The notes under the pieces were generated by a model. That model worked only from the letters and a program-made list of their open reading frames with translations, searched no databases and was not told the origin of the DNA. From Candidatus Bathyarchaeota archaeon (GTDB taxonomy: Archaea; Thermoproteota; Bathyarchaeia; 40CM-2-53-6; RBG-13-38-9), in the NCBI GenBank assembly GCA_963807605.1, contig CAWECG010000003.1, positions 768,001-832,000 of the forward strand: a DNA stretch of 64,000 bases, written 5' to 3'. Positions 2,909-38,732 of this stretch are shown one piece after another; the first letter of the stretch is position 1, and the number at the start of each line of letters is the position of its first letter. Position numbers and translations under genes: made by a program.

Positions 2909-3065
2909 TGGTGCGGGGAGTGGGATTCGAACCCACGAACCCCTACGGGACAGGAGTTCTGCTGCGCAGGTAGGACCTCAAAGATGGCCGGATGCGCATC
3001 CTCAGTCCTGCGCTTCCAAACGCCGGTTTCGCCAGCGTACTTTGACCTGGCTTGGCAACCCCCGC
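2909..3065 (-). tRNA. tRNA-Leu(GAG) with two introns and encoded CCA
   Basis: Removing 3014-3039 (26 nt, D-arm) and 2957-2999 (43 nt, 37/38) gives an 88-nt class II cloverleaf GCGGGGGTTGCCAAGCCAGGTCAAAGGCGCAGGACTGAGGCTCCTGT...TCCCCGCACCA; anticodon at 3001-3003. Confidence 0.92.
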
Positions 3066-16684: not shown

Positions 16685-16778
16685 AGCCCGGTAGTGTAGC
16701 GGACAAAGGATCGTTTCCGTCTAGGCATAGCGGGCTTTGGACCCGTTGACGGGAGTTCGAATCTCCCCCGGGCTACCA
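16685..16778 (+). tRNA. tRNA-Gln(TTG) with 18-nt D-loop intron and encoded CCA
   Basis: A1-U72 acceptor AGCCCGG/CCGGGCT, anticodon arm GCGGG-CTTTGGA-CCCGT, T-arm GGGAG-TTCGAAT-CTCCC; intron 16707-16724 in a BHB motif. Confidence 0.92.
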
Positions 16779-22063: not shown

Positions 22064-22555
22064 TGCATATGTGTGCACTCAAAAATTCAGCTAAGGAAGA
22101 GGGAACTAAGTTTTGCATCAATTGTAATGCATGTCCCCCCTAAGGCGACCTTCTCTCTAGGATGTGGAGCGAAAAAATTAACCCAGGATTAGTGCGCATT
22201 TGGGATGATTGAATTCCACTGCCAAACACTACCTTGTATGAATCCAGACGTTAGAAGTAACATGTTCTGTTTTCAATGCTGTAAAACCCAGTAGCCACAT
22301 TCTAACTTCACATTCCAATTGGACGCTTTATTATCTGCGGAGTGCGAGAGAATGAAAGACTCGAAGGTTATGAAACCAGTTCAAATGGCCCTTATGTTCT
22401 ACAAAACGCAGAAAGATGCACGCGCGTAGAATCTGAACGCGCCTCGCTGATTCACCGAAACCAATTCACAACGTACGCTCACCAGCTGGCGGGCGCTGAC
22501 ACACACTCAATGCTTATTAGCGATAGATCCTAATTCCATGACGAGCTGACTTTGC

Positions 22556-24354: not shown

Positions 24355-24368
24355 CCTTAGCTGGTGAG
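24355..24368. repeat. target-site repeat copy 1 (degenerate, distal)
   Basis: CCTTAGCTGGTGAG, 13/14 identical to the copies at 28420 and 37414. Confidence 0.85.
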
Positions 24369-24436
24369 CACACACAATAGCCGATTATCCAATTACGTTA
24401 CCATTGATAGAACACAAACGGTTCTTACCTTATTCC

Positions 24437-25105
24437 TCACAGAAATGTGAGTAGCTCAGGTAGATCATGAATTCGTACCGTCGCCACCTTCGCCAGTTCT
24501 TCATCACTATTGACGGCCACAGCCAATCCGGCGTTCTTCAAGAATCTGACATCGTACCTGCTGTCCCCTACGCACACACAATCGCTCTTGCTTATGTGCA
24601 TATCATCGAGTACATGATCGAGCGCTTCGTCCTTGCGGTTGAGGTCAACCCTAAAGATCCCGTTTCCGGTCAGAAATCCATCTCTGTCGGTTTGAAGTCC
24701 GTTAGCCACAGCAACATCGACTCCAAGCAGCGAGGCAACCTGATCAGTAAGAAGATCCAGCCCCGCGGAGATGATGACGACTTTGTATCCCCTCTGTTTT
24801 ATTTGTTGGACAACTTCCTTGGCATGAGGCGTCAGGGTGAAACTCGACAATATCGCCTTGATTTGTGAGATATGGAGCCTTCTGGGCCAGAGAGAGATAT
24901 CACGACGCATGAACTCTTCGTAGTCGATCCGTGCCTGTATATATGAAGCTAGGTTCGGAGCAGCCTTCTCTACGGTTCCAAAGTGGCCATGAATCCTCAA
25001 TCAACTACTTTTCTCGTTTACTAGAGTTCCATCCAAGTCAAAAGTAACAAGGCGGAACTTAATGGATGTATGGCCGGTGTCGTGTCTATTTGTGAAGCTC
25101 CTCAT
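24437..25105 (-). pseudogene. HAD-IB phosphoserine-phosphatase-like protein with in-frame TGA
   Basis: ATG at 25105, FDLDGTL motif I, then SS*L (TGA at 25001-25003, where homologues usually have Trp), ISAG, VGDSRYD. Confidence 0.85.
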
Positions 25106-26195
25106 CATTCGCCGACCGGTTGTAATCCTTTTTCCGTGCGTTCGAGTTTGATCGTCCAGTAAGGTGCGAACCCCTCAAATTCATCAGATGTCGCTCGTAC
25201 TTTGATAGTCAGGCCCTTTGAGTCGAATTCATACACCGAATAGCAATTTTTCCCTATTATTCCGAGATCCTCTCTAACGACACCACTGCTCCCAGTTCCA
25301 TGAACTGCAAGAGATTGAGATGATTGATATTCGTTGTTCTTCGGAGGTCGAGAGATACAAGATACGAACGGTTGATGACGATGACCATGCGAGACTATGT
25401 CGACATTCAATTGCAGTGCCTTGTACATCAGCTGTCCCGCGTCCAAAGTCAGATCATAATTCCGGCTCAGTGTCGTTATTTCTTCTACTGGTGTGGCTGG
25501 GATAAGATGATGATGCATTGTCATGATTCTATACATTACACGTTGTCCGTCTACCTTCCAGTTGAGCGAGCTGGCGGCCTGTTCAAGTTGCTCTAGACCC
25601 ACAAACCCGTAGCCTGCGAATTGCCGGTCTTCTAGCCGGGTTGAGTTTAGCCCCAGCACATCAACTGTAACGTAATTGCTAAGTAAGTATCGGCGCCCCA
25701 ATGTGAGATGCTGGTTCGGAGGCAATCCGAACGCTGCCAAGAAGAAATCAACATAGTTCTTCTGCGCGACTTCGCTTGAGAATTGAACAGGCTTCTCTGG
25801 ATCGTACTTGTCATCTTCCTGCTCAGCCCATAGAATATCGTGATTACCAGGCACAACGATGAGATCATAATAAGGGTCCAGTTCAAAGATGGTCCTTAGC
25901 GTTGACGCGCGCGCGTGCCAATCGGATCCTCTGTGTCGGATACTTTGATGTCTTTCACTTTTGCTCTGTACGTCAGATGTTTCCCGCTATCCAGCAAGTA
26001 GACGACTAATGGCTCAGTCGTGCGAGCGGTTGTCGTGAAATCTGCAAACACGGCGCGCGGAATCTTTTCTTTGGGAAGTGCCCACCATCCCCACCAAACG
26101 TAACCGTGTTGAGTGATTAAATCTCGGTGCAGCTTTATTGTGAACCCTAGTTGGGTAGCAAGATCTCGGAATCTCAACACCATCGATGTCGGCAT
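25105..26195 (-). pseudogene. metallophosphoesterase with N-terminal WWGWW domain, internally deleted
   Basis: 5' part (GYVWWGWW) ends at (CG)5 at 25906-25915; another frame resumes with DLIVVPGNHD, HHH, HGHRH; the DxH and GD motifs are missing. Confidence 0.7.
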
Positions 26196-26324
26196 TAATC
26201 CTTACCTGTTTAGAGCGAGTAATGACCTGCTGTCAGCCATCTAGCGCGCGCTAGGGTTAGAGATGTCTTTTCCATATGGCTATTGGTGCCACATTTCAAA
26301 TAAGCATTGTCAGCACACGTCAAC

Positions 26325-27212
26325 CTAGCTACGCACGCATACTTTCTGCCGCCATACTAACCCGCACACAAATCGGGGGCAGTACAGATTTTTCCGGTAT
26401 CGATCGTACTTCATACGCTTCCCACAGTTAGGGCAGTTGAAGAAGCCCTCCCAACCGCAGGTCAAACCATCCTGGCAGGAGAAAACCCCAGATTTGGTAT
26501 AGATCAGCTTGCTTCCGCAGTCTGGGCATTCATATTGGGGTGGGTGGTCTTCCATCCACCGTTTGGCTTGTGGTTTTCCCGATTGTATATTCTCGTAGGC
26601 CAACCAGCCGTCAACTTTCTGAATAATGTCCTCCCCCAAAGTTGGGAAGGCGTAATTCGGATAATGCTCCACATTGTATTCCCTGCGGTCTTTGTAGTCG
26701 TCAGCGGTCAATTCTTTGTGCATGAATTCCTCAAAAGTCAATCCAAGTCGTTGCAGGTGTTGCCTTATTTCGCCCAGTTTTTCAGGGGCTTCGGATAGAA
26801 CCTTCTCCACGAGCCCTAGCATTTTTGCTCGGTCATGCGACGCCTCATATTCTTCGAGTATTCGCTGGAATTTCCAGGCTTCACGTCGATGATGATCCCT
26901 TTCCAGCTCGGTTAGGTATTTCGCCTTTGCAAGCTCCTCTAGATTTGTTGCTGTTTTGACTTCAATCTTCAACTTTTCAAGCTCTTCGTCTGTGGGAGTC
27001 TGCGAGGCCTCTGCTTTGGATTCTTCTTCCTCAGCTTTCTTGAGCTTTTGAAATTGGCGGAATATCGTTGACTTTGGCGTGTCAAGCTTTTCTGCAAGAG
27101 ATCTCAACGAAGCGAGCCCTGCCTTCCATTCTAAGTAGGCCTTTCTCAACTTGTTCTCACCTGGTTGGAAATTTGCGTCATTGAGTCCCGTACTTCGTTC
27201 AAGGAGAGTCAT
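26325..27212 (-). CDS. HTH + coiled coil + double zinc-ribbon protein
   Basis: SLRSLAEKLDTPKSTIFRQF HTH; CPDC...C...C and CPNC...CP..C. Confidence 0.75.
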   Translation of the reverse strand: MTLLERSTGLNDANFQPGENKLRKAYLEWKAGLASLRSLAEKLDTPKSTIFRQFQKLKKAEEEESKAEASQTPTDEELEKLKIEVKTATNLEELAKAKYLTELERDHHRREAWKFQRILEEYEASHDRAKMLGLVEKVLSEAPEKLGEIRQHLQRLGLTFEEFMHKELTADDYKDRREYNVEHYPNYAFPTLGEDIIQKVDGWLAYENIQSGKPQAKRWMEDHPPQYECPDCGSKLIYTKSGVFSCQDGLTCGWEGFFNCPNCGKRMKYDRYRKNLYCPRFVCGLVWRQKVCVRS

Positions 27213-27612
27213 GTGATCACCGTTAATTCAAGACTATTTAGCTATTTCCAGTTCATTTATAAGGCTTTTTGAAGTAAAAATGAATAATAAAGAGTAATAT
27301 GTTGAAATAAATAAGAAATCATTGAAATAATCAACAATCATGAAAATAAGCACTTCTTAAATTAAGGAAAGATGAATTCCCAAAAAATAAACAGGGACAA
27401 CCCGTTCGTGCATACACTGACAACCGCATCCGTCTGTAGGCTGAGGGAGGGAGACAAAGATTATCGGGGCATGTTCGACTTTTGACGGAACGTGCGCAGC
27501 TATTCTTTCTTGGAAGTGGTTCCCCACAGAATTCAAAAGGACACACTGATTCCAGATTATCAGCACGAATCAAGGTTGCACATACACGTAGTGGAGCACT
27601 ATGACCCCCACT

Positions 27613-27768
27613 GGGACAACCGGGACAATGAGGACAATGGGACACTAGAATCTGATGGAAAATCGGAGTCTTATGTATTGAAAAGATTTTTTGAATCATC
27701 TAAAAAAGTACTTGGGACACGTGAAACATGTGGAACATGGCAGGACATGTCAAAACAGAATGGGACAT
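27613..27768. repeat. iteron-like 9-10 bp periodic GGGACA/GGAACA repeats
   Basis: gggacaacc-gggacaatg-aggacaatg-ggacac (27613-27645) and gggacacgt-gaaacatgt-ggaacatgg-caggacatgt...gggacat (27714-27768). Confidence 0.75.
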
Positions 27769-27813
27769 AAGGCGGCTTAATCAGAGAAAGAAGCCAGGAA
27801 CGTCAAGGTAATA

Positions 27814-28176
27814 GTGTTGCTCTTGGCTGACGAAACACAAAACAGAACGTACTCGAAAGGCCAGCTAAACAAGATTATCGACTCAGTCGTGCATCCCCTT
27901 TTCAAAAAAGATGCCAAATTCATCATAGTTGACAGCGCTCTCCACGCACTTGTCGAACAAAATCCCACCCTCTCGATAAGTAAATTCCTCAAATACAACC
28001 TCCAAGAGATTGTCCAACAAACAGTTGGAAAAGACAAACTCAGAAAAAAGAGAGTTGACAGCCTCATAAGACAGTTAAGGAAATTGTCTAGAGAATACCA
28101 GAGCATCCCAAGAAGACGCGTGCGTTCTGGCGGCAAAGCATCAAATGCCGCGCGCGGGTCGACAACCTCGACGTAA
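27814..28176 (+). pseudogene. hypothetical protein fragment
   Basis: Upstream in-frame ATG cut off by a TAA (MGHKAA*SEKEARNVKVIV); the tail runs into GC-alternating tracts. Confidence 0.45.
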
Positions 28177-28317
28177 CTTTTTTTAAGATGCCACCAAAAC
28201 GAACATAACTGTGTTTAGACGATGAATAATCGGACTGTGGCAGGGTCTCTCCTACTAGTCGGCAGCGCCCAATACATCATTAGTATGATTGTGGCGGAGT
28301 CTGTATACCGCGCGCGC

Positions 28318-28410
28318 TTCTCATTTTTCCAGTTTTGTTGCCCTTCTTGAATTTGCGTTCAGGATGTTCAATGTAGTCTTCAACCATCTTATCCAGTGTA
28401 TTCCAGTATT
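28318..28410 (-). pseudogene. short remnant resembling the C-terminal region of casposon family B DNA polymerase
   Basis: Translates QYWNTLDKMVEDYIEHPERKFKKGNKTGKMR, resembling the YW..L....Y..HPE.K...G..G..RRH pattern I recall from casposon PolBs. Confidence 0.5.
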
Positions 28411-28419
28411 GTGTGTGTG

Positions 28420-28433
28420 CTTTAGCTGGTGAG
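28420..28433. repeat. target-site repeat copy 2, shared by elements A and B
   Basis: CTTTAGCTGGTGAG between (TG)n and (CGA)4. Confidence 0.92.
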
Positions 28434-29894
28434 CGACGACGACGAAACATTAATTCTGTGAGGGAATACCGGGTAGCACTGTGAAACGATTTCGAGTATT
28501 CTGTCGACTATGCGACAAACATCCGGAATAACATCGGGCAGGCTGCGTGGAGAGCCTCTTGGAATCCTGTGAAGTCTATGAAGTGGATTACCGCAGAGCG
28601 CAAATTCCGCATCACGCAATCCGCCCCAATGTCCATGAGAAAAAGTTGACATCCAAGAATAGAAGCAGTCGTACACATCTTTGGCACCGGCCTCTATACT
28701 GATCTTTCTGAGGTCTGCGTTCGCCCAGTGACCCAGTTCAATGGGCAAGAATTCTTGCCAGATGTCTTCGTTGGCGAGTGCTCGAAGCGTATCCGTATTT
28801 ACATAGCTCGATTTCTCGTTCAGGTGGTTCAGTTTTAGGTAGGATAACTTCACTTGGCCAGCGCCAAAGATCCTATATGATTTCCAGAGGTCATCCGTGT
28901 CTTTCACTGCTAGATACTTCAAAGTGATGTAACACTCCACAATAGTTCTAAGAATAATGCGCCCAGAAATGGAGTGGCTCAGGTGATTTCTGCACAGTTC
29001 CACGACTAAGCTGAGACAATAAAGCGCGATACCGAAAGTGGTGTCGTGGCGTGGATCTAATGCCGTTGTCGTTCTAGATTTGTTGCAGTGTTCCAAAAGG
29101 AGATCGTAAAGTTCCTTCACACGACTATCGGTACCCTCAAGGCTGTGCTCACTCGCTTGGACTTCTGGGATAGAATAGCAAGGAGTGTCACGCAGACATT
29201 GCTGCCAGAACGTGGCAGGCCATCTTCTGATCGTTTTATCAACTTGCCTGAAGGTTATTTCCATTGAGCGAATCGTCGGTTTGACTTTTCGCTGGTCTCC
29301 ACGGTCAGGGTAAAATAGGATTTCTTCTGCTATCTCTCTGTGTTCAGAAGAAAATTTTATTTTCCTAGAGACCATCATGCACAGCACTCTCACCCATCGG
29401 CAGTCCGTCGATTCTTGCGATTGATGATTGAGTATACTTGCCACAGCAAGCATTAGCGCCTCCCAATCTGTGCTCGAAGGAGAATCCTTGATCTTACTTG
29501 CCCATTCTCTTCTAGAGGGAATGTCCAACAGAAGAAGAGGCCTGAGTATGCGTCTATGTTCGTCGACTTCGACAAGAATATCTAGAATTTCATCGAGAAC
29601 AGGTGGTCTTAGATTCGAAAGACCAGTGTGTGTTATGTCGTCAGGGCGATCATTCCCCTGAAACTCAGCTACATATTTCACTATTTTTCGCAATACTGTC
29701 AAAGCATCTGGGCGAGGAAGATGTGAGAGCAAAAGTGACGTCCAAATGAACTCAGGTAGAAAGTCATCGATCCATGACATTGGCTGCAAATTCGGAATAG
29801 TTGCAAGCGACGGAATTAGGGTACCCTTGCTTAGCTTGTGCTGATCAATTGTTGAGTGATCATTCTTTGAAAGTGGTGTGCCTTGATTGGTCAA
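28422..29894 (-). CDS. DUF5677-like protein (cargo)
   Basis: 490 aa; IILRTIVE.YI, Y...S.FSHG.W helical C-terminal motifs; its stop lies in the target repeat. Confidence 0.65.
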   Translation of the reverse strand: MTNQGTPLSKNDHSTIDQHKLSKGTLIPSLATIPNLQPMSWIDDFLPEFIWTSLLLSHLPRPDALTVLRKIVKYVAEFQGNDRPDDITHTGLSNLRPPVLDEILDILVEVDEHRRILRPLLLLDIPSRREWASKIKDSPSSTDWEALMLAVASILNHQSQESTDCRWVRVLCMMVSRKIKFSSEHREIAEEILFYPDRGDQRKVKPTIRSMEITFRQVDKTIRRWPATFWQQCLRDTPCYSIPEVQASEHSLEGTDSRVKELYDLLLEHCNKSRTTTALDPRHDTTFGIALYCLSLVVELCRNHLSHSISGRIILRTIVECYITLKYLAVKDTDDLWKSYRIFGAGQVKLSYLKLNHLNEKSSYVNTDTLRALANEDIWQEFLPIELGHWANADLRKISIEAGAKDVYDCFYSWMSTFSHGHWGGLRDAEFALCGNPLHRLHRIPRGSPRSLPDVIPDVCRIVDRILEIVSQCYPVFPHRINVSSSSLTS

Positions 29895-30039
29895 AGTTAT
29901 TCTTCCTCAAGCTTATGCTAATCACAAGGTGAACTAATCACATACTCTCGCTGATCAAGTTGAAGTCTCCACATCTGTAACACTTTGGAGGTTGTTTTAC
30001 ACGAACACGCCCGCGAGTAGGGACGCCAATAGCTCCTTC

Positions 30040-31182
30040 CTAATGGTAGTCCGTTGGGTCTCCGGGGATCCAGTTTTCAAGAGGTTCCTTCAGAATAGTT
30101 GGCAATTGAGCATCATTGAAACATCTGTCTATCTGGTACATGTTCCTTTGCAGGTCACTCCCAAGTTTCGCCTTGATTGAAGTCGCAACCGGATCAACCA
30201 GAAATATCTTCAGCGCGAGATTTTCCTTGACCGCATTATAAAACACGTTGTTTACCGCTTCGTCTCTAAAGGAATAACCAATGACGATGCACACCGGGGT
30301 TCTCTTCAATTTCTCTTGAAACAAATGAAATAGTTCAAAGAAAGGATCTTGATAGATATATTTCGTTTGAATTGGATAGATCAACAATTCTCCGCGAATG
30401 TTATCTCCGTAGAGTGTTTTCTCTTGCCTCGCTGGCAGCAAGATAATTTCCCCTTTGTCAGTTATCCACTGGTCTATTGAACCGTGAAGCTTGTGAAGGC
30501 GAATGCGTTCGTCTCCGGCGAATCCTTCGTGTTGATGGAGATTCTTGATGTTGAAAATCATTTTGGTCTTGGTTGGATCCGCGTCGAATCCGTTTGTCAT
30601 TGGTATCATTTTCTTGTTACAGTATAGTTCTATGCAGAGGTCATAGTTAGTGGTGATTATGTCGACCGGAAGGTAAGTGGTTGCCGTGCCCGAAAGTCTG
30701 GCTGATATTATGTTGGTAATCCGTTCAGGAGATCTCGAAGCCTTAACTCTGAGAATGTTCAGCGCCTCAAAAAGTGAATCGTAGGTTTTAGTCATCTTGT
30801 CGATCTGTTCCTCTTTCAATCGAGAGGTCTCGTAGATGTAGTTCTTGATGGCTTGAATCGTATTCTCAAGATCTGGACGTTTAGGCAGTTGATCAATGGC
30901 ACTATATTGGGATAAGTACCATGGGAAGGGCCCAGAATCTCGAACGGCCTCTTTGGGGCTCATATAGCTGGTTAGAACGGTCAAGACCGATTCCAGATCG
31001 GGTGTAAAACCGAATTCTCTAATCTTCTTTTGAATTGACTCGATATCGTATTTGTTGATAGAGGGTATCTGCTTGATCTCATCGGTCATTTCCTGTAAAG
31101 TAGGAATGTCGAAACTCCTTGAGGCTCCTGCACCAAGAAAGACAATCACAAGAACCAACCCCCGCAAGCTACTAAGGCGCAC
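30040..31182 (-). CDS. SIR2-like (SIR2_2) protein, putative NADase
   Basis: FLGAGAS, TTNYD, KLHGSI, IGYSFRD. Confidence 0.9.
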   Translation of the reverse strand: MRLSSLRGLVLVIVFLGAGASRSFDIPTLQEMTDEIKQIPSINKYDIESIQKKIREFGFTPDLESVLTVLTSYMSPKEAVRDSGPFPWYLSQYSAIDQLPKRPDLENTIQAIKNYIYETSRLKEEQIDKMTKTYDSLFEALNILRVKASRSPERITNIISARLSGTATTYLPVDIITTNYDLCIELYCNKKMIPMTNGFDADPTKTKMIFNIKNLHQHEGFAGDERIRLHKLHGSIDQWITDKGEIILLPARQEKTLYGDNIRGELLIYPIQTKYIYQDPFFELFHLFQEKLKRTPVCIVIGYSFRDEAVNNVFYNAVKENLALKIFLVDPVATSIKAKLGSDLQRNMYQIDRCFNDAQLPTILKEPLENWIPGDPTDYH

Positions 31183-31183
31183 G

Positions 31184-32353
31184 CTAACTAGGAATAGTTT
31201 CCTCTGGGTAGTTTAGTCTGAAGAAATCCCTTACAATTTGGTCTTTGAGCTTGTAGTTTCCTTCCATTTTGAATATCAAATCGAACTCGATGAGTTTAGT
31301 CAAGTATCGAATCAGCCACTCCGGCCTTAGGCCCGTTTCTTTAGCAATTTTTGAAACGCTCATTTCTTCTTTTGAGAGAGCTCTTAGTATTCTCGCATAG
31401 TTCGTTTCTGTGACTTTAGAACCTAGATCATCGCTTAAAATATAGTTAACATACAAATAGAGGCCTCCAGTAACATTAGTCAACAGTCGCTCATATCTTT
31501 CTGCAACAGCCTCTCCCGGTCTTCTCGCTTCTGCCATTACAAGAAGGTAGAAAGGGTGCCCTCCTACAAGTCTGTAGACTTCTTCAGCTTCATTACGATC
31601 TACTTCTAGAGCTGCATTCAAGTAGAGCTCCCTAGCGTCTTTTTCCTCAAGAGGCCCAACCTCAATCAAGTTGAATCTGCCAAATAATGGTGAACCACCT
31701 TCACCAAATATACTCTTTAACATATGGACTCTGGAACCACTTAAGATGATGGAGACTCCTGCCAACTCATCTATGATTGATCTGAACTGATCCATCACAT
31801 TTTTCATACCGTCAAATCTAGTCCATTCAATGATTTTCTGAGCTTCATCCAAGATTATGACGACTCTTGTCCCTGAGACAGTGGCCAAATGGGAAGCGTA
31901 AGAAAAGGCTTTTCCAAAAGATTCAGTAAATCTTGGTTTTTCGTTCGCAAAAGCAGGTCTAATTGTCCAAACAGGTTTTCCGACATCATCTAGAGTGAGA
32001 TCGAACTCCACACGCAACCTTCTCAATTTCTTGATTTCTTTGATTGCATCACCTACCTGACTAATGATTTGTGATTTTACGTCAAGTGTTTTTTTATAGG
32101 ATTCGGTGAGCGAGTCGATGATGGCTTGGTTAAATTCACTAGGATCATAGCCATATTTTGAGAAATCTAGTCTCGTGACAATGACATTCTGGTCAGCTAA
32201 GCGTTTCTCCAGTTCCTTTAGGATAGCGGTTTTGCCAATTCTTCTTGGGCCTATTAGGGCATAATGCATTTTCGCGCCCAGTTTCGTCAGCCCTTCAAGA
32301 AGTTTTGTCAGTATTTCCTCTCGGTCAACTATGTTATCGAACATATATGTCAT
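31184..32353 (-). CDS. archaeal AAA/STAND-like ATPase with C-terminal winged helix
   Basis: VDREE, GPRRIGKT, IILDEAQ, LSGS, SPLFGR, GGHPFYL; HTH at SVSKIAKETGL. Confidence 0.88.
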   Translation of the reverse strand: MTYMFDNIVDREEILTKLLEGLTKLGAKMHYALIGPRRIGKTAILKELEKRLADQNVIVTRLDFSKYGYDPSEFNQAIIDSLTESYKKTLDVKSQIISQVGDAIKEIKKLRRLRVEFDLTLDDVGKPVWTIRPAFANEKPRFTESFGKAFSYASHLATVSGTRVVIILDEAQKIIEWTRFDGMKNVMDQFRSIIDELAGVSIILSGSRVHMLKSIFGEGGSPLFGRFNLIEVGPLEEKDARELYLNAALEVDRNEAEEVYRLVGGHPFYLLVMAEARRPGEAVAERYERLLTNVTGGLYLYVNYILSDDLGSKVTETNYARILRALSKEEMSVSKIAKETGLRPEWLIRYLTKLIEFDLIFKMEGNYKLKDQIVRDFFRLNYPEETIPS

Positions 32354-32470
32354 CTAACATATATGTTGAATTACATATAAGTTTCCCTGTCAACAATTGT
32401 TTCGCCAAGCTTACGAAGGCATGTTTTCCAACACATATGTCGTATAACATATATGCGATATAACATATGT
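32341..32470. repeat. palindromic ACAT(AT)ATGT repeat cluster over the ATPase start and upstream region
   Basis: Copies at 32341, 32357, 32373 (partial), 32433, 32447, 32463. Confidence 0.8.
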
Positions 32471-32827
32471 GCTAGTCGTCACCCATGACGTGTGCAATAC
32501 CTATGCCAATAACCTCGATTCTCTTCTATTGTCCTGTTTTAACCCCGTTACACTTCACTATTCCTGCTTAGACTACAAAAAAGGTGATTTTGTCTCCATA
32601 ATACTGCCGCAGATCTCGGATACAATTTCCAATACGGGAGAAATGTCCTGATTTTGCTTGATTCCATCAGAAACAACCTCATTCTACTAGCTATTTCTCT
32701 GATTCAATTAGCTTTTTGATATATCCCTCCTATGGTATTCTATGATTATGCTATGATTTAGTTTCAGAGATAACATGTCATAATCAGGCCAGAAGTGGAC
32801 ACCTCTATGTCTCCATTTCTCCTACAA

Positions 32828-33655
32828 TTATGGAGCATCTTGGACTCTAGTGGATTCTATCGGATTGAATCTGGAGTTCAAGTACTTGGATAAGTCAAGG
32901 AATTCATCAAACTCTTCCCGCGTGACATCAGTCTTTTCCTTCATTAGCGCCAAGGCCTTGAGAAACGTCTTAGCATTCAAGAAGAACCTGAAGCCGTAAA
33001 ATTTCATAGAGTCACCGATCTTGATGCTGATAGGAACCAGATCCTTCGCGATGTCTTTCGGAAGAATGACATCAACTGGTTGAGTTGGAAATTCTAAGTC
33101 AATCTTGTCTCCAACAGCGCTCTTGTCTTCCAGAAGAGAATCGTATATCCTGCAAACCGCAGATATGGGATAGCTATAGCTGAAGAGGAACATTCTGCTT
33201 AGGAAACCCATCTTAGCCCAATCGTGTCTGCCATCCTCCAGAGCATCTTCAGTAATCGCGGTCAATAGTCCGCAGTTCACTTCTTTGTCCCAGACATTAG
33301 CGTACGTTGTGATTTTTGCGACTCCTTCCTCAATGAGGTTATTCAGAAAAGCTATCAAAGACTGTCTTGTCTTCGCGCTTTTGCTGAGTGGAGTGATCAA
33401 GTCTGCTATTATGATGTGTTTGACCTCTCCTGACACTACCTTCGGCAGGACATCACGTGTTAGACCGAAAGCTGTACAATCGGTGTAGTAGACGATTCCC
33501 TTGTTCTCCTTGTACTTCTTCAGGACGGCTGTCTTTCCGCTTTCAGGTTTAGCGACAATAAGAAGCGAGAGAGGCTTCTCATCTTTCAAATATGCACTGT
33601 AGAGAGTAGCTCTTACTGTCTTTTCCAGTGCATCTAATTCTATAATTCTTGGCAA
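32828..33655 (-). CDS. AAA+ ATPase, putative replicative helicase
   Basis: Walker A AKPESGKT, Walker B IIIAD, LNNLIEEG, Arg-finger-like GFLSR. Confidence 0.75.
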   Translation of the reverse strand: MPRIIELDALEKTVRATLYSAYLKDEKPLSLLIVAKPESGKTAVLKKYKENKGIVYYTDCTAFGLTRDVLPKVVSGEVKHIIIADLITPLSKSAKTRQSLIAFLNNLIEEGVAKITTYANVWDKEVNCGLLTAITEDALEDGRHDWAKMGFLSRMFLFSYSYPISAVCRIYDSLLEDKSAVGDKIDLEFPTQPVDVILPKDIAKDLVPISIKIGDSMKFYGFRFFLNAKTFLKALALMKEKTDVTREEFDEFLDLSKYLNSRFNPIESTRVQDAP

Positions 33656-33687
33656 TATTCCTCAACCATTTTCTGTCTCGCCGAGCT

Positions 33688-34161
33688 TCATACTCGTACT
33701 CTCGTTCCAGCTCGCGATCTTCCTCTATGTTCACTGTCCTTATGCTCATGCTGAAGTCTCCTTGCGAGTGATCTTGTGTTCTGGATGGTTGACTGAGAAG
33801 ATGCACTGCCTCGATAGATAGTCCGCAATCTCTTGTTAGGAGATTCGAAGAGCTTGTTCCATTCCTTGAATCCAACTCGTATTCGCGCGCGATTGAAATC
33901 TACTCTTCGACAATCATCACCTAAAAGGAACTGTAATCGATTCGCAAGCTCCGATTTCATCGCAGGGATTATTTTGATGTAGAAGTGGTTGCCTTTGCAT
34001 CGACTTGGACACATTCTTATTTGGACAACTTTGACCCCATGATTCCTGCAAATATTGACCACTGACCGGACATAGTCGCTTATCCATTCATGGTCTACGA
34101 CACAGTCCTTATCGACCTTTAATTCATCGACGAGTCCTGCGTCTGTACCTTTTCTTGACAT
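33688..34161 (-). CDS. small archaeo-eukaryotic primase (AEP)-like protein
   Basis: LKVDKD (DxD), SRCKGNHFYI (SxxxGxH), LGDD in AEP motif order. Confidence 0.55.
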   Translation of the reverse strand: MSRKGTDAGLVDELKVDKDCVVDHEWISDYVRSVVNICRNHGVKVVQIRMCPSRCKGNHFYIKIIPAMKSELANRLQFLLGDDCRRVDFNRARIRVGFKEWNKLFESPNKRLRTIYRGSASSQSTIQNTRSLARRLQHEHKDSEHRGRSRAGTRVRV

Positions 34162-34495
34162 AACTAATCACTCTTGATGGTAGTCGGTGGGCCTTCCACC
34201 TCCGACCTTTGCGCTCCATCCTTAACGCTTCAATAGTCAGATGCCGTTGCGTCTTGGTTGCTGGTCTCTCACGCTCGAATGAAATCCTAATGTATTTTTT
34301 CGGAATCCAACGTCTATGCTTCCGATACAAATGTCGTTGAAAATATTGAAGCCCTCTTCTCGCAAGACTTCTCCTTACTCTTCTGATGTCACCTTTTCTC
34401 GTTGCCGTAATGTACATTTCCTGTTCCTGTGGTATCTTCTGATGCTCTTCATACCACATTGTAGAAACCGTCATTTTGTAGATTCTAGCCGACAT
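34124..34495 (-). CDS. very basic Arg/Lys-rich protein
   Basis: 123 aa, overlaps both neighbours in the same operon. Confidence 0.65.
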   Translation of the reverse strand: MSARIYKMTVSTMWYEEHQKIPQEQEMYITATRKGDIRRVRRSLARRGLQYFQRHLYRKHRRWIPKKYIRISFERERPATKTQRHLTIEALRMERKGRRWKAHRLPSRVISYVKKRYRRRTRR

Positions 34496-34751
34496 TGGAC
34501 ATCCTCTTTTCTTGGTAGCCCGATCCCTTGACTGAGCGGACCTTGTTGGGAGAATTTATCCAGAAAATCCAGCTTTTTGAAGACTTGACTGCCTGAATTC
34601 TACCTTCGTATAGGAGTTCTAGGCAATGTTTCAGGGCGGTGTTCCAGTTGCCAATCCTACACGCCACCCTAATCTTCTCTACATCCAATGGTTGCTGAGT
34701 TTCAGCGAGTTGCTTAAGAATGGAAGTCTTGTAATCGAAACTTTTCTTCAT
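34485..34751 (-). CDS. small winged-helix protein
   Basis: ILKQL...PLDVEKIR..CRIGNWNTALKHCLELL.EGRI...SKSWIFW; ATG at 34751. Confidence 0.7.
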   Translation of the reverse strand: MKKSFDYKTSILKQLAETQQPLDVEKIRVACRIGNWNTALKHCLELLYEGRIQAVKSSKSWIFWINSPNKVRSVKGSGYQEKRMSNVG

Positions 34752-34823
34752 TCGAATCGCCTTACAGAAGATCTTACATGAATTGTTATATAGAGGCGTA
34801 CACATGCAATTATCCGAAGATGC

Positions 34824-35498
34824 GTGGGTATGGACAAGTATGAGGCGCTTGCAGAGAAACTCAACCGTGTAAGAACAGGAATTCTGCTAAATGGTCCAAT
34901 CACTGTGTATGGTATCGAGAGATACTTAGACCTTCCAAATGCGACGGCTAAGAGATATTTCAAAACCCTGCTAAGAGAGAAAGAGATTATTCAATACAGG
35001 ACAGAACCGCACAAAAGTGGAAATATCAAGATACTCTATGGGCCGACCCTCTACGGTTATTTAAGATGGTTCAGAATCCCGAAGAGCATTGCCAAGAAGA
35101 ATTTTGGGGCAGCAATGAAAATTTGGCTTCCAGAAGACAAATTCGAATTCTTTCTACCCAAGAACGAATTACAAGAGGCGCTGAAGAATAGCCAAGTTGT
35201 AGTTCATTTATCGAGATTCTGTCAGATGATCGCAGATGTACTCCCTGACGCAGAAGACTTCTCAAGTTACCTAGAAGACCAAGGCTACAGCGAATCCAAT
35301 CCCTCACAGATAATCAGTCTAGCTATGCAATTTGTAGGCAGAAGCCATGCTAAAGAATGGACTGCAAGTTCAAAAGTTCTCGTCAAATATTTGCCGACCT
35401 ACCAGCAGCAGCTACAGCAATTCATTCGGAATCAGCGAGAACGACTTGATCGCATGGAAAAAGAGATCTTTGGGCATGAGGGAGGAAGTCAAGAATGA
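34824..35498 (+). CDS. HTH regulator upstream of cas1
   Basis: GPITVYGIERYLDLPNATAKRYFKTLL; ATGA overlap with cas1. Confidence 0.75.
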   Translation: MGMDKYEALAEKLNRVRTGILLNGPITVYGIERYLDLPNATAKRYFKTLLREKEIIQYRTEPHKSGNIKILYGPTLYGYLRWFRIPKSIAKKNFGAAMKIWLPEDKFEFFLPKNELQEALKNSQVVVHLSRFCQMIADVLPDAEDFSSYLEDQGYSESNPSQIISLAMQFVGRSHAKEWTASSKVLVKYLPTYQQQLQQFIRNQRERLDRMEKEIFGHEGGSQE

Positions 35499-36703
35499 AT
35501 CCTCTTCATCTTTCTGGTTACGGCGTCAAGGTCAAGGTCGATAATATGCGTCCTAAGTCAGAGCTTGTGATATCTGATGGCAGACAGGACTTCAAGGAAG
35601 GCTCAGCCTATCGCTTTAGGCCAAGAAAGATTCCTTATGACTCCATCATCATTGACGGTCACAGCGGCTACATCTCTCTTCAAGCCTTCCACTGGCTATC
35701 CAAGAACAAGATTCCAGTCTTCATCCTCAACTTCGATGGTAGCTTGATTTCGTCTATTCTTCCTCCTATGCCTGTTAAGGCTGACTTGAGAGCTGCACAA
35801 TTAGACGCCTCAAGAGATGCTGAGAAGACATTCAAGATTGCATATGAACTGGTGAAGGCTAAGATTCAGAGAACCCATGATGTCTTGAAGTGGCTTGCAG
35901 ATAGATACGACATAGAAAAGCAAGCGAGGAAAGTCAAAAAAGAATCCTTGACTCTCTCAAAGGCAAGTACAATCAAAGACCTGAGAATTGTCGAAGGCAG
36001 AGTAGCTCTAAGATATTGGCAAACTATCCAGTCAGTTATTCCTGAGACCTTTGATTTTCAAGGCAGAATCACCAAGAAACATCAGTACAATGCTTCAGAC
36101 CCTGTTAATCTGGCGCTGAACTATGCTTATGGAGTATTGGAGGGCGAATGCCGTAGAGCAATAAACATCGTAGGCTTAGAGCCTTCAGTCGGCTTTTTGC
36201 CTGATTTCGCTGATTACCAGACCAAACAATCATTGGTCTACGACTTGCAGGAACCCTTCAGATGGATTGGTGAAATAGCTACAATACAGGCCTTCGAGTC
36301 GGGTCTACTGGATATGAAAGATTTCTATTTCATGGGCGACGATTACCGCTATCACCTTGAGATAGAAGCTAAGAGAAGATTCCTACGATTTCTCAAAGAA
36401 CGATTCAACTCAGCAATTAGGTACAAAGGCAAGGTATGGCAGTGGGATACTGTTATCCTGAATAAGGTTCAAGAGTTAAGCAGATTCTTTCTTGGGAGAT
36501 CCAAGTTCGTAGACTTCATAGAACCTGCTCCAAGTCTGGTAAGAAGCGATAGTTTGGAATTTCGCAATCGAATTCTAGAGCTGACACAGAAACAGGCTCA
36601 AGGACTTGGCATGAGTAAGAGTACTCTTCATCATCTGCGTAAGAATATTAGTAGTGATAAATCGTTTAGAGTATATCAGAAGGTTGCCTGTAGGCTGAAG
36701 TAA
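35495..36703 (+). CDS. cas1: casposase-type solo Cas1 with C-terminal HTH
   Basis: MNPLHLSGYG start, IPYDSIIIDGHSG.IS, VEGRVA..YW, ASDPVNLALNYAYG.LE, SLVYDLQEPFR, HTH QAQGLGMSKSTLHHL; no cas2 or CRISPR array. Confidence 0.92.
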   Translation: MNPLHLSGYGVKVKVDNMRPKSELVISDGRQDFKEGSAYRFRPRKIPYDSIIIDGHSGYISLQAFHWLSKNKIPVFILNFDGSLISSILPPMPVKADLRAAQLDASRDAEKTFKIAYELVKAKIQRTHDVLKWLADRYDIEKQARKVKKESLTLSKASTIKDLRIVEGRVALRYWQTIQSVIPETFDFQGRITKKHQYNASDPVNLALNYAYGVLEGECRRAINIVGLEPSVGFLPDFADYQTKQSLVYDLQEPFRWIGEIATIQAFESGLLDMKDFYFMGDDYRYHLEIEAKRRFLRFLKERFNSAIRYKGKVWQWDTVILNKVQELSRFFLGRSKFVDFIEPAPSLVRSDSLEFRNRILELTQKQAQGLGMSKSTLHHLRKNISSDKSFRVYQKVACRLK

Positions 36704-37396
36704 ATGGCTGAGAAGAAGCATTCTAGACGTAGATTTCTGAAGTATGTAGGAGCGGGGATTGTTGCAGCAACTGCTGGAATATGCTACCTAACTAAGGACT
36801 ATTGGTATTCTCGCATACAGGAAGCCTACAAAGAATTCTATACAAGAATGTTTCCAGAAAGGAGTTCGACTACCACCACAACAGCTTCCACCACAACAGA
36901 AACTCAAACTCCCAGTATTATCCAATCACCATCGGCCACTGTAACTCCAACACCAACACCAAAGGAACAGATGTCCGAAGACGAAATAATGATAAGAGGA
37001 GTCCTGGCTGCGTGGAGAGATCTCTACAATCCTGGAAAAACGGGTAATACTCTCGGGGTCTATACGGACGATGCCGTCTTGGATTTTGGCTGCAGTAGTG
37101 ATAGAGTCGGGAGCTTTACCGGGTCGGCTGAAATATCAGCGTTCATCAGTGGACGTGTGGCTGAAGATGATTGCAAAATGGCGAATCAGATAATAGAAAC
37201 GTTGAGAATACAGGACAATGAGGCATATGTCGTATGCTATGAGGATTTGATGACTAGCAGAGGAACCGCTAGATGGCTCAGCAAATTCAAGCTGAGAAAG
37301 ATCAGCGAAATCAGGCGTGGAGCCAGCACATTCAAACTCCCAAAACCACTTTGGAAAATACAGGATGAGTATTCTCACTGTGCGCAAGACGGCTGA
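36704..37396 (+). CDS. Tat-signal protein with Thr-rich linker and NTF2/SnoaL-like domain
   Basis: SRRRFLK twin-arginine motif, poly-Thr/Pro, IRGVLAAWRD, YTDDAVL, LWKI. Confidence 0.8.
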   Translation: MAEKKHSRRRFLKYVGAGIVAATAGICYLTKDYWYSRIQEAYKEFYTRMFPERSSTTTTTASTTTETQTPSIIQSPSATVTPTPTPKEQMSEDEIMIRGVLAAWRDLYNPGKTGNTLGVYTDDAVLDFGCSSDRVGSFTGSAEISAFISGRVAEDDCKMANQIIETLRIQDNEAYVVCYEDLMTSRGTARWLSKFKLRKISEIRRGASTFKLPKPLWKIQDEYSHCAQDG

Positions 37397-37413
37397 AATC
37401 GTCGTCGTCGTCG

Positions 37414-37427
37414 CTTTAGCTGGTGAG
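37414..37427. repeat. target-site repeat copy 3 (proximal to putative leader)
   Basis: CTTTAGCTGGTGAG immediately after (TCG)5. Confidence 0.92.
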
Positions 37428-37446
37428 AGCATCCAGATTTGAACCG
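37421..37446 (-). other. tRNA 3'-end-like motif forming the putative casposase target
   Basis: Minus strand CGG-TTCAAAT-CTGGA-TGCTCTC-A-CCA: T-loop, exactly 12 nt, discriminator, CCA; no recognisable 5' half. Confidence 0.6.
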
Positions 37447-37541
37447 TTAGATTATGATTTTGTGTGTGGTGCTACTTGGTTAGAGTATCGAGATCCCCCT
37501 TCACTTTGCACATGCCAGAACTCCTCGGAACTATTGAACTG

Positions 37542-38732
37542 TTAGGTTGGTTCACCTTCGTAAGATATGCAGCATGGATCTTCAGCCCATAGGTCGTTTG
37601 ACTCAAAATAGGCTCTTATTCTGCAGCCTCCAGTGCAAGTCTTCTTGTTAATGCATCTTCCACATTTACCTTTGAGCTTGTCAACTTTTCTTCTCAAATC
37701 TGAGAGAACAGGGTTCTGGGGGTCGTTCCAGATCTTCCCAAGAGATATTTCTTTTAAGTTTCCCACTTTCAGACTTGCGAGTTGGGCGAATTGACATGGG
37801 TATATGTTTCCTTGAGGGTCTATGTTGAGTACTCTATCACCCGCACTGCATGTATCGCCAACTAACTCCAAGATTTCGTGAGCCTTGTCATATATGTTAG
37901 GTGCCTCTTTCTTCAACCTATTGAGAATATACACGCCATCTTGCGGTGCATCCACAGTGAGTATCTCTATCTGTTCTGGGCTAAGTGACCATGTAGACTC
38001 GTATAGCTCGTTGAGCACCCATGCAATCTCATCTTTATCGAGTCTTTTCTTTTGATACAGGTTTCTTCCTCTGCCGCTTGGAACAAGCCAGTATAGGCAG
38101 AATCTTGGTACATCTAGGCGTCTAGTGAGAGCCAATAGTTCAGGAATCTCTTTGAAATTGTCTCTTGTCGCCGTTAACCTGATTCCACACTTAATTCCTG
38201 ACTCAATACAATTCTTCAAAGCTCTGACAGAACTGTCAAAGCTACCACTTTGGCCTCTTATCGTATCATGTGTGGATGCGCGAGCTCCGTCGAGCGATAC
38301 CCCAACATAATCTACCTGTTCCTCTTTGAGCCTCTGCGCAACATCGCGTGTTATCAGAAGGCCGTTGCTGCTAACTGCCACCTTCACGCCGCGGGAACGG
38401 GAGTATTTGAGTATGTCCCAGAAGTCTGATCTGACAAGGGGTTCTCCACCGCTGAGCATTAGTAAGGGAGTTCTACAGGCGACTGCTTCATCGACGAGAC
38501 GCTGCGCGTCATGAAATGAAAGTTCACTATTCAGTTGCTGATTTCCCGCATTGATGTAGCACTGTGAGCATGAGAGGTTGCATCTGCTCGTCAGGTTCCA
38601 AAATATGAGCGGCCTCTTCTGTTCAGAGAAAGCCAAATACTTACTGGGAATCCTTGAGGGGTCTTCTTTTCGGTGTTTCAGAATCTTGGCTACAGTCCCT
38701 TCTCCATGAATCAACTCAGTGAATCTGATCAT
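37542..38732 (-). CDS. ahbC: radical SAM/SPASM heme biosynthesis protein (AhbC/NirJ1-like)
   Basis: CNLSCSQC, SGGEPL, LVPSGRG, CSAG, SPASM cysteines; follows ahbAB. Confidence 0.7.
   Translation of the reverse strand: MIRFTELIHGEGTVAKILKHRKEDPSRIPSKYLAFSEQKRPLIFWNLTSRCNLSCSQCYINAGNQQLNSELSFHDAQRLVDEAVACRTPLLMLSGGEPLVRSDFWDILKYSRSRGVKVAVSSNGLLITRDVAQRLKEEQVDYVGVSLDGARASTHDTIRGQSGSFDSSVRALKNCIESGIKCGIRLTATRDNFKEIPELLALTRRLDVPRFCLYWLVPSGRGRNLYQKKRLDKDEIAWVLNELYESTWSLSPEQIEILTVDAPQDGVYILNRLKKEAPNIYDKAHEILELVGDTCSAGDRVLNIDPQGNIYPCQFAQLASLKVGNLKEISLGKIWNDPQNPVLSDLRRKVDKLKGKCGRCINKKTCTGGCRIRAYFESNDLWAEDPCCISYEGEPT

Follow-up and report, generated by a model that had tools for sequence, protein, structure and literature searches.

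The CRISPR adaptation machinery has been proposed to descend from casposons. The minimal target of the Aciduliprofundum boonei casposase consists of the target-site duplication (TSD) and 18 bp that cover the T-psi-C loop region of tRNA-Pro (PMC5137440), and mutagenesis of this target identified its determinants as the heptamer TCAAATC, 8 bp upstream of the TSD, together with the first bases of the TSD (PMC6614799). The Methanosarcina mazei enzyme needs the TSD and 30 bp of upstream tRNA-Leu sequence, and its activity is abolished by mutation of base pairs 12-17 upstream (PMC6977970). Targets in this species are tRNA-Leu and an intergenic site, IR1, with tandem arrays and solo terminal inverted repeats (solo-TIRs) (PMC4779613, PMC6977970, PMC10359463). 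In the literature that we searched, we found no relevant description of casposons in Bathyarchaeota or of casposon MITEs.

The window analyzed here is a stretch of 64,000 nucleotides from a Candidatus Bathyarchaeota archaeon (contig CAWECG010000003.1). The minus strand at 37445-37414 is likely to be a casposase docking site (hereafter, the pad), composed of a leader and a 14-bp stretch that is duplicated on insertion. Judged against the targets described above, the pad most likely keeps only those parts of a tRNA 3' end that are read by family-2 casposases. The features of the locus are listed below in the order of the minus strand.

37542..38732, minus strand: flanking host gene for a radical-SAM/SPASM protein, AhbD-like (ahbD), from its domain match; heme/siroheme cluster.
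37477..37494, minus strand: decayed older pad ATCTCGATACTCTAACCA, 15 of 18 nt identical to ATCTGGATGCTCTCACCA (shuffle p ~0.002-0.008).
37446..37468, minus strand: CA tip CACACACA (37468-37461) and A-rich spacer; homology to other genomic copies begins at the tip.
37436..37445, minus strand: T-loop-like box GGTTCAAATC, with motif and spacing as in the A. boonei leader determinant.
37428..37435, minus strand: 8-bp spacer TGGATGCT from the box to the duplication, from the information profile; T-stem 3' half unpaired.
37414..37427, minus strand: 14-mer CTCACCAGCTAAAG, duplication copy A, which holds ACCA at 37424-37421.
28434..37413, minus strand: element 1, an 8,980-bp casposon, single-copy in the genome, with a CGACGACGACGA tip at either end.
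35495..36703, plus strand: casposase, a Cas1 with a C-terminal HTH (Pfam Cas_Cas1, E 2.7e-49).
28420..28433, minus strand: duplication copy B, identical to copy A (14 of 14 positions).
24369..28419, minus strand: element 2 (4,051 bp), non-autonomous, with CA tips CACACACAATA and without Cas1.
24355..24368, minus strand: duplication copy C CTCACCAGCTAAGG, with one mismatch to copies A and B; this form of the 14-mer is a common one in the genome.

As had been noted in the preliminary description of this DNA, the minus strand has TTCAAAT at 37443-37437, then exactly 12 nt, CTGGATGCTCTC, and then ACCA at 37424-37421. Also as described there, the 14-mer spans the last three acceptor-like bases, ACCA and 7 nt downstream; it is repeated exactly at 28433-28420. 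The order of the pad on this strand is thus ...CACACACAAAATCATAATCTAACGGTTCAAATCTGGATGCT, CTCACCAGCTAAAG, CGACGACGACGA..., and TCAAATC (37442-37436) occupies positions -15 to -9 relative to the start of the duplicated segment. The CA tip (37468) follows the ahbD stop codon at a distance of 73 nt, and the motif at ~100 nt. When the 147 nt from the 3' end of ahbD to the TSD were compared with the genome by BLAST, these 73 nt were unique, and homology to other sites started exactly at CACACACA (37468) and continued through the 14-mer. The tip, the A-rich spacer, the box and the 8-bp spacer form a module of ~41 nt (37468-37428) that looks like a solo casposon end. By itself, the instance of the motif in the window is only marginally significant, with one found against 0.07 expected and 6 of 100 shuffles of the window containing at least one match. 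We consider it non-random because it lies flush against the duplication and recurs across the genome, where there are 49 instances against ~1.7 expected; 33 of these are pad copies and the remainder are mostly true tRNAs.

The geometry of the pad is close to that of AciBoo-C1 in A. boonei. TCAAATC stands exactly 8 bp upstream of the duplicated segment in both, and in both the first base of the duplication is a C that corresponds to tRNA position 70. The TSD is 14-15 bp in AciBoo-C1 (PMC5137440, PMC6614799) and 14 bp at the pad. A casposase of the family-2 type with a C-terminal HTH is common to the two, and the prediction in the A. boonei literature that tandem insertions accumulate downstream of the leader fits the pad. 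Unlike the A. boonei site, the pad is not part of a tRNA gene, its T-stem is not complementary, its duplication begins with CT and not CC, it has an additional conserved junction between GATGCT and CTCACCAGCTA, and it exists in ~50 copies, mostly on casposon tips. As CC is required in A. boonei, the CT start, together with the C at position -9 of the window pad (T in most copies), indicates that the specificities of the two systems are not identical.

The family-2 casposons of M. mazei likewise have a 14-bp TSD, and their tRNA and intergenic targets share a conserved motif at the 5' end of the TSD (PMC4779613, PMC6977970, PMC10359463); their targeting depends on upstream sequence, elements in tandem have a TSD in common and solo TIRs are present at target sites. 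A start of the duplication at position 70 fits M. mazei as well, because the last 4 bp of the tRNA overlap the TSD. The core motif there is CGCA, compared to CTCACCA here, and the few loci per genome contrast with the dozens found here; neither a leader on element ends nor dozens of copies is described in the M. mazei casposon literature that we searched. Overlap with a tRNA 3' end, which is typical of family-2 targets without being universal (intergenic sites are known), is absent at the pad. The earlier reading of the site as a leader-like landing pad is supported by TCAAATC 8 bp upstream, the conserved junction and the tandem elements downstream.

Downstream of the leader, the three 14-mers bound two tandem elements; the third of them, at 24368-24355 on the minus strand (..AAGG, one mismatch), had been missed in the preliminary description. 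Around element 1, the 14-bp direct duplication is combined with terminal inverted tips, CGACGACGACGA, which form a perfect 12-nt inverted pair, and this arrangement is that of a family-2 target. The alignment of the casposase with its M. mazei counterpart 6OPM (E 5.7e-72) covers residues 4-397 and thereby also the C-terminal HTH domain. Its gene (35495-36703) is the sole intact copy in the 2.65-Mb assembly, with only fragments found elsewhere, and element 1 is the genome's sole autonomous casposon. Among the 12 element-1 ORFs scanned with Pfam there is neither a PolB domain nor a PolB-sized ORF, the largest being 490 aa; compared with the M. mazei casposons, element 1 is without the PolB, HNH and HTH gene set. 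Its cargo ORFs match DUF5677 (490 aa), SIR2_2 (380 aa) and ATPase_2/AAA+wHTH (389 aa), and by these matches the cargo looks like the defence type. The DUF5677 ORF (28422-29894, minus strand) crosses the terminal repeat of element 1 (…SSSSLTS*), and its C-terminus is set by the insertion site, because the stop codon TAA (28424-28422) falls within TSD copy B. Inside element 1, an AT-rich gap between divergent gene sets holds a cluster of direct and inverted repeats with a 16-nt period (32315-32484; ATGTnnTCnAACATAT; families D1, I1 and I2), which looks like a set of iterons or an operator/origin region.

Parts of element 2 recur in the genome next to other pads. Its leader-proximal 0.7 kb (27609-28309) has 91-94% identity to C1:358449-358971 and C1:426389-426539, segments that adjoin such pads. 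Element 2 is accordingly one member of a mosaic, multi-copy family of non-autonomous elements. Copies A and B both read AAAG where copy C reads AAGG. Element 2 was probably the earlier insertion and element 1 the later: the leader-proximal 14-mer would have mutated after the arrival of element 2, and element 1 would then have inserted there and duplicated the mutated copy. This order agrees with the leader requirement and with element 1 being the intact one of the two. In the alternative order, element 1 came first, element 2 entered at copy B and copy C mutated later, which also takes a single mutation. The two orders are equally parsimonious, and the known leader requirement alone favors the earlier arrival of element 2; entry would in that case have been polarized towards the leader-proximal copy.

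The pad belongs to a large family of sites, a property that had escaped the preliminary description. Across the genome there are 69 exact matches to the core CTCACCAGCTA, where ~1.3 would be expected. Just over half of these cores (35 of 69) directly follow an element end and are downstream TSD copies; a further 25 follow the box at the same offset (a shift of at most 2 nt or at most 2 mismatches), and the remaining nine are mostly recognizable degenerate versions. For the analysis of conservation we used 48 strictly defined genomic copies of the pad. Their information profile peaks at ctAacGGTTCAAAT and GaTGCTCTCACCA, the box being the block of highest information content. Information is close to zero at the three positions after the box, in the upstream spacer and at the 3' positions of the T-stem; in the 8-bp spacer, the first 3 nt vary among copies and GATGCT is conserved.

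The motif is also conserved at homologous targets in related genomes. Of 16 genomes of the Bathyarchaeia family, 8 contain the pattern GTTCAAWT-N5-TGCTCTCACCA; the 285 genomes examined from the rest of the class all lack it, and a reversed-pattern control gave no hits. It co-occurs with casposase genes or their fragments; casposases 48-81% identical are accompanied by the same box, core and tips in other Bathyarchaeia MAGs, and the Cas1 relatives in Bathyarchaeia MAG records have 66-81% identity. At the far end of this range, genome G013 encodes a full-length casposase 48% identical and, ~50 nt past an unrelated gene, has a tip-less pad, directly behind which comes a GGGGATATAG tip. In genus g3 (genomes G003 and G015), the orthologous ahbD (72% identical) has an occupied pad without an upstream tip ~51 nt past its stop codon, and no tRNA. 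The corresponding position in G001, G002 and G012 has neither a pad nor a tRNA; the regions downstream of ahbD in these three genomes map to other parts of the genome that contains the window, with one weak link, from G002 to ~17.9-18.3 kb of the window. An ancestral pad downstream of ahbD is possible on this comparison of sequences. In another related locus (CAYXJU010000050.1, minus strand, ~9073-8985), a 59-nt insert with both CA tips (CACACAC...GTGTGTG) has a leader with its 14-mer on one side and, on the other, the 14-mer in front of a Cas1 casposon that shares 80% identity with element 1. This insert has the makings of a natural mini-casposon at the leader-proximal position.

These data bear on the possibility that the likeness to a tRNA end is coincidental, with the 14-mer alone being of importance and the TTCAAAT box being neutral sequence that hitch-hikes in a repeat. 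The shuffle frequency given above leaves room for such a coincidence, and the copies share ancestry, such that their conservation could partly reflect recent amplification. Against this, the box has stayed nearly invariant while the spacer and T-stem positions of the same copies fell to near-zero information; it is kept in the tip-less pads of other genera and beside the casposase of only 48% identity; and it matches, in sequence and position, the motif shown by mutagenesis to be required by a related enzyme. We consider a coincidence quite unlikely and retain the reading of the box as the leader of a casposase target.

The site is not a tRNA gene, as the preliminary description had recognized. 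ARAGORN predicted no tRNA there, a search of 37250-37750 against Rfam gave no match at E<=10, and the folding of an 87-nt stretch was no better than that of its shuffles (z = 0.17). The T-stem equivalent forms three of five pairs (AACGG/CTGGA), in agreement with the earlier count. No 5' half is evident, again as claimed: the best upstream acceptor partner, with 6 of 7 pairs at a distance of 388 nt, is at chance level. A genome-wide scan returned two cleanly separate classes. The ~26 true tRNAs have 5/5 T-stem pairs, a 7/7 acceptor partner 65-140 nt upstream and a GC-rich acceptor, and the pad-like class comprises dozens of sites of the form AACGG-TTCAAAT-NNNNN-TGCTCTC-A-CCA with 0-4 T-stem pairs. 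Over the 48 copies, T-stem pairing averages 2.15 of 5, compared to 2.17 when the 5' and 3' halves are shuffled between copies; pair 49-65 is formed in four copies and pair 50-64 in nine, and there is no covariation in the T-stem.

A comparison with all tRNAs of the genome, as the preliminary description had suggested, found none with the acceptor strand TGCTCTC. The two tRNAs of the window, at 16685-16778 on the plus strand (ARAGORN and Rfam, 54.7 bits) and at ~2909-3065 on the minus strand (intron-containing), have unrelated GC-rich 3' ends, and the motif matches neither, as had been stated. Many tRNA genes of this genome contain introns at non-canonical positions, and most encode CCA; in standard mode, ARAGORN detected one of the two window tRNAs and left its anticodon unnamed. 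Elements are absent from all true tRNA 3' ends of the genome. The description of the pad as a decoy is only compatible with these results.

Unusual tRNA gene architectures are conceivable in a genome with so many tRNA introns, and the site might accordingly encode a functional tRNA-like RNA, such as the 3' half of a split tRNA or a tRNA-like tag at the 3' end of a transcript. A functional RNA structure was rejected on the folding result, and the absence of covariation and of an Rfam match, the AT-rich, unpaired 'acceptor' and the presence of copies in both orientations within element ends all argue in the same direction; this explanation is barely credible.

The site could instead be what is left of a real tRNA gene, formerly located downstream of ahbD, whose 5' part was destroyed by insertions, in line with the earlier suggestion of a relic. 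Family-2 casposons are typically found in tRNA 3' ends, the tRNAs of this genome encode CCA and the spacing in the motif is exactly that of a tRNA. Decay of a local tRNA is nevertheless at odds with the extent of the repeat, as similarity to the other copies starts at the CACACAC casposon tip, 23 nt upstream of the box, and with the existence of at least 48 further copies without T-stem covariation. It is likewise at odds with the lack of an Rfam or ARAGORN match, with the absence of the TGCTCTC acceptor from the genome's tRNAs and with the ahbD stop codon lying only ~100 nt upstream. Relatives were also proposed as a place to look for the full tRNA, and none was found after ahbD in those that carry a pad there; this position holds no tRNA (for example, one ending in GATGCTCTCACCA) in the relatives compared, whether or not a pad is present, and none of 15 pad-bearing related loci has one. 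We have rejected a local relic on these grounds. A tRNA remnant is largely refuted for this locus and very unlikely, although the motif may still have originated from a tRNA in a distant ancestor or donor. The preferred reading is thus that of a casposase leader that resembles a tRNA 3' end and stands apart from any tRNA gene.

The genomic context of the copies links them to the ends of elements. An element tip (of the CA, CACC, CGA or GGGGATA type) stands immediately after the 14 bp in at least 38 of the 48 pads. On the other side, 27 pads have a CA or CACC tip 16-44 nt upstream of the box, and 23 of these 27 tips abut a CTCACCA core, which is direct in 12 cases and inverted in 11; near-equal counts of this kind are the expectation for the two ends of inverted-repeat elements. 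The module at 37468-37428 bears the CA tip common to element 2 and many other ends and is without casposon genes, as is a solo TIR, and the closest published description of such end remnants is the solo-TIR of M. mazei (PMC4779613). Its first 23-25 nt are shared with CA-tip ends at C3:43298, C3:455385 and C1:400181; some related CA-tip ends share the first 25 nt and have a different sequence after CTAATGG. The pad is not native chromosomal DNA: it forms the inner portion of a casposon-type end starting with CACACAC at 37468.

Further upstream, the decayed older pad has lost its T-loop box, and its putative old duplication, placed by local alignment, is at ~37483-37470; like the attachment of the pads to element ends, it had not been recognized in the preliminary description. 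We propose that this older pad received a CA-tip end, whose own intact pad would then have served as the target for elements 2 and 1. The module may have originated as a long TIR that contains a target, as a solo TIR that remained after a deletion between 14-mers, or by fusion. The genome has one clear case of a facing pair of modules, C1:409643-411275 (C1:409678/411239), the outer flanks of which are inverted and not direct repeats. It encloses two small cassettes, with an alpha/beta-hydrolase-like ORF and an ORF of ~110 aa, both bounded by CA tips and 14-mers; the internal 14-mer CTCACCAGCTGGGT contains the palindrome CCAGCTGG.

In the window, we looked for the other end of a possible large CA-tip element that would start at 37468 and found only one non-canonical candidate, near 22478-22506, with no matching duplication. 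There, a core-like CTCACCAGCTGGCG on the plus strand precedes GACACACAC by 6 nt, in the orientation opposite to that of copies A-C, and by its sequence the site may be the degraded end of an older element that spanned the region. Elsewhere in the genome, further pads have conserved upstream sequences of their own, GAATGCTAGGATGTCTAGGGTCTAAGG...TCCAAAT or AGCAATTAGTACTCTAGTGCCTAGCGGTTCAGAT (C1:394910, C3:747106, C3:765642, C3:452092 and three CTCATCAAAAGATA sites at C3:555735, C3:309846 and C4:447789), which suggests several pad lineages or a second recognition variant.

The linkage of box and tip in both orientations, in a genome where the ends of element 1 are boxless, raises the question of whether the box serves primarily as an end-binding site. 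On this alternative account, it would be a subterminal recognition site of the CA-tip elements, lying in a long TIR and bound by the HTH of the casposase; its adjacency to the 14-mer would be a by-product of a core copy within the repeat, with no leader function. The 27 pads that lie 16-44 nt behind a CA or CACC tip, the 12 direct and 11 inverted cores that precede them, the two inward-facing modules of C1:409643-411275 and the tip at the start of the window module can all be explained in this way. The tip-less pads argue against it: those after ahbD in G003 and G015, that of G013 and ~20 in this genome are occupied directly after the 14 bp. In addition, the 8-bp spacing to the insertion point is the experimentally defined geometry of a leader, and the ends of element 1, which is autonomous, contain no box. 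A purely end-binding box is therefore improbable, while the leader role and an end-binding role of the box are not mutually exclusive. Keeping the leader reading, we tentatively suggest, as an idea that is more doubtful than the docking site itself, that the T-loop-like leader has become part of mobile DNA. CA-tip ends would in that case carry box, spacer and 14-mer with them and seed new pads in both orientations.

The proposed mechanism starts from the parts that the pad appears to retain, namely the T-loop box TCAAATC, the 8-bp spacer and a duplication that starts at the equivalent of tRNA position 70 (CTC-A-CCA...). The casposase encoded 0.7 kb away would bind the box and the junction between GATGCT and CTCACCA, join one element end at this junction and the second end 14 bp downstream, and repair would then duplicate the 14-mer. 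Only the leader-adjacent 14-mer would remain a complete target, and elements would hence stack downstream of it. We infer the binding, the polarity of insertion and the spread of the modules. If the leader has moreover become part of mobile DNA, the result would be a self-propagating leader-repeat system that stacks gene cassettes and mini-inserts and is driven in this genome by a single PolB-less casposon. The pad family would account for many of the repeat-bounded gene cassettes in the genome. What remains of the recognition signal would be the bases that mutagenesis has mapped in another archaeon. A short substrate (37468-37414) and the matching enzyme (35495-36703) allow testing of what a casposase reads in its leader; the same pair bears on the role of T-arm structure and on whether pads spread with elements.

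By its sequence and layout, the pad is functionally a presumptive family-2 casposon target of the kind described in A. boonei and M. mazei. The tRNA genes used as attB sites by tyrosine integrases offer a similar landing site that resembles a tRNA 3' end and a similar tandem accumulation of elements. Unlike attB sites, the elements here contain no tyrosine recombinase, have inverted tips and a 14-bp duplication in place of att cores, and regenerate no tRNA. The leader-repeat junction used by Cas1-Cas2 in CRISPR arrays is likewise a two-part target, with an upstream leader determinant and a segment that is duplicated at each insertion. The integrases are homologous, and entry at the leader-proximal copy, which we infer here, would be common to both. 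In contrast to CRISPR, the repeats are 14 bp long, the inserts are transposons of 4-9 kb or their fragments and not spacers, and no Cas2 or effector domains were found among the 20 ORFs scanned around the site.

Compared with these systems, what appears to be new is the uncoupling of a tRNA-derived signal from the tRNA gene, in which complementarity of the stem has gone and the positions read by the protein have been kept. Also new would be the amplification of this signal to ~50 copies, mostly attached to element ends, in a genome whose sole autonomous casposon is without PolB. The locus bears on how the target of a transposase became a leader-repeat junction and, if the leader has become part of mobile DNA as tentatively suggested, would represent a living intermediate between casposon targeting and the leader-repeat arrays of CRISPR.
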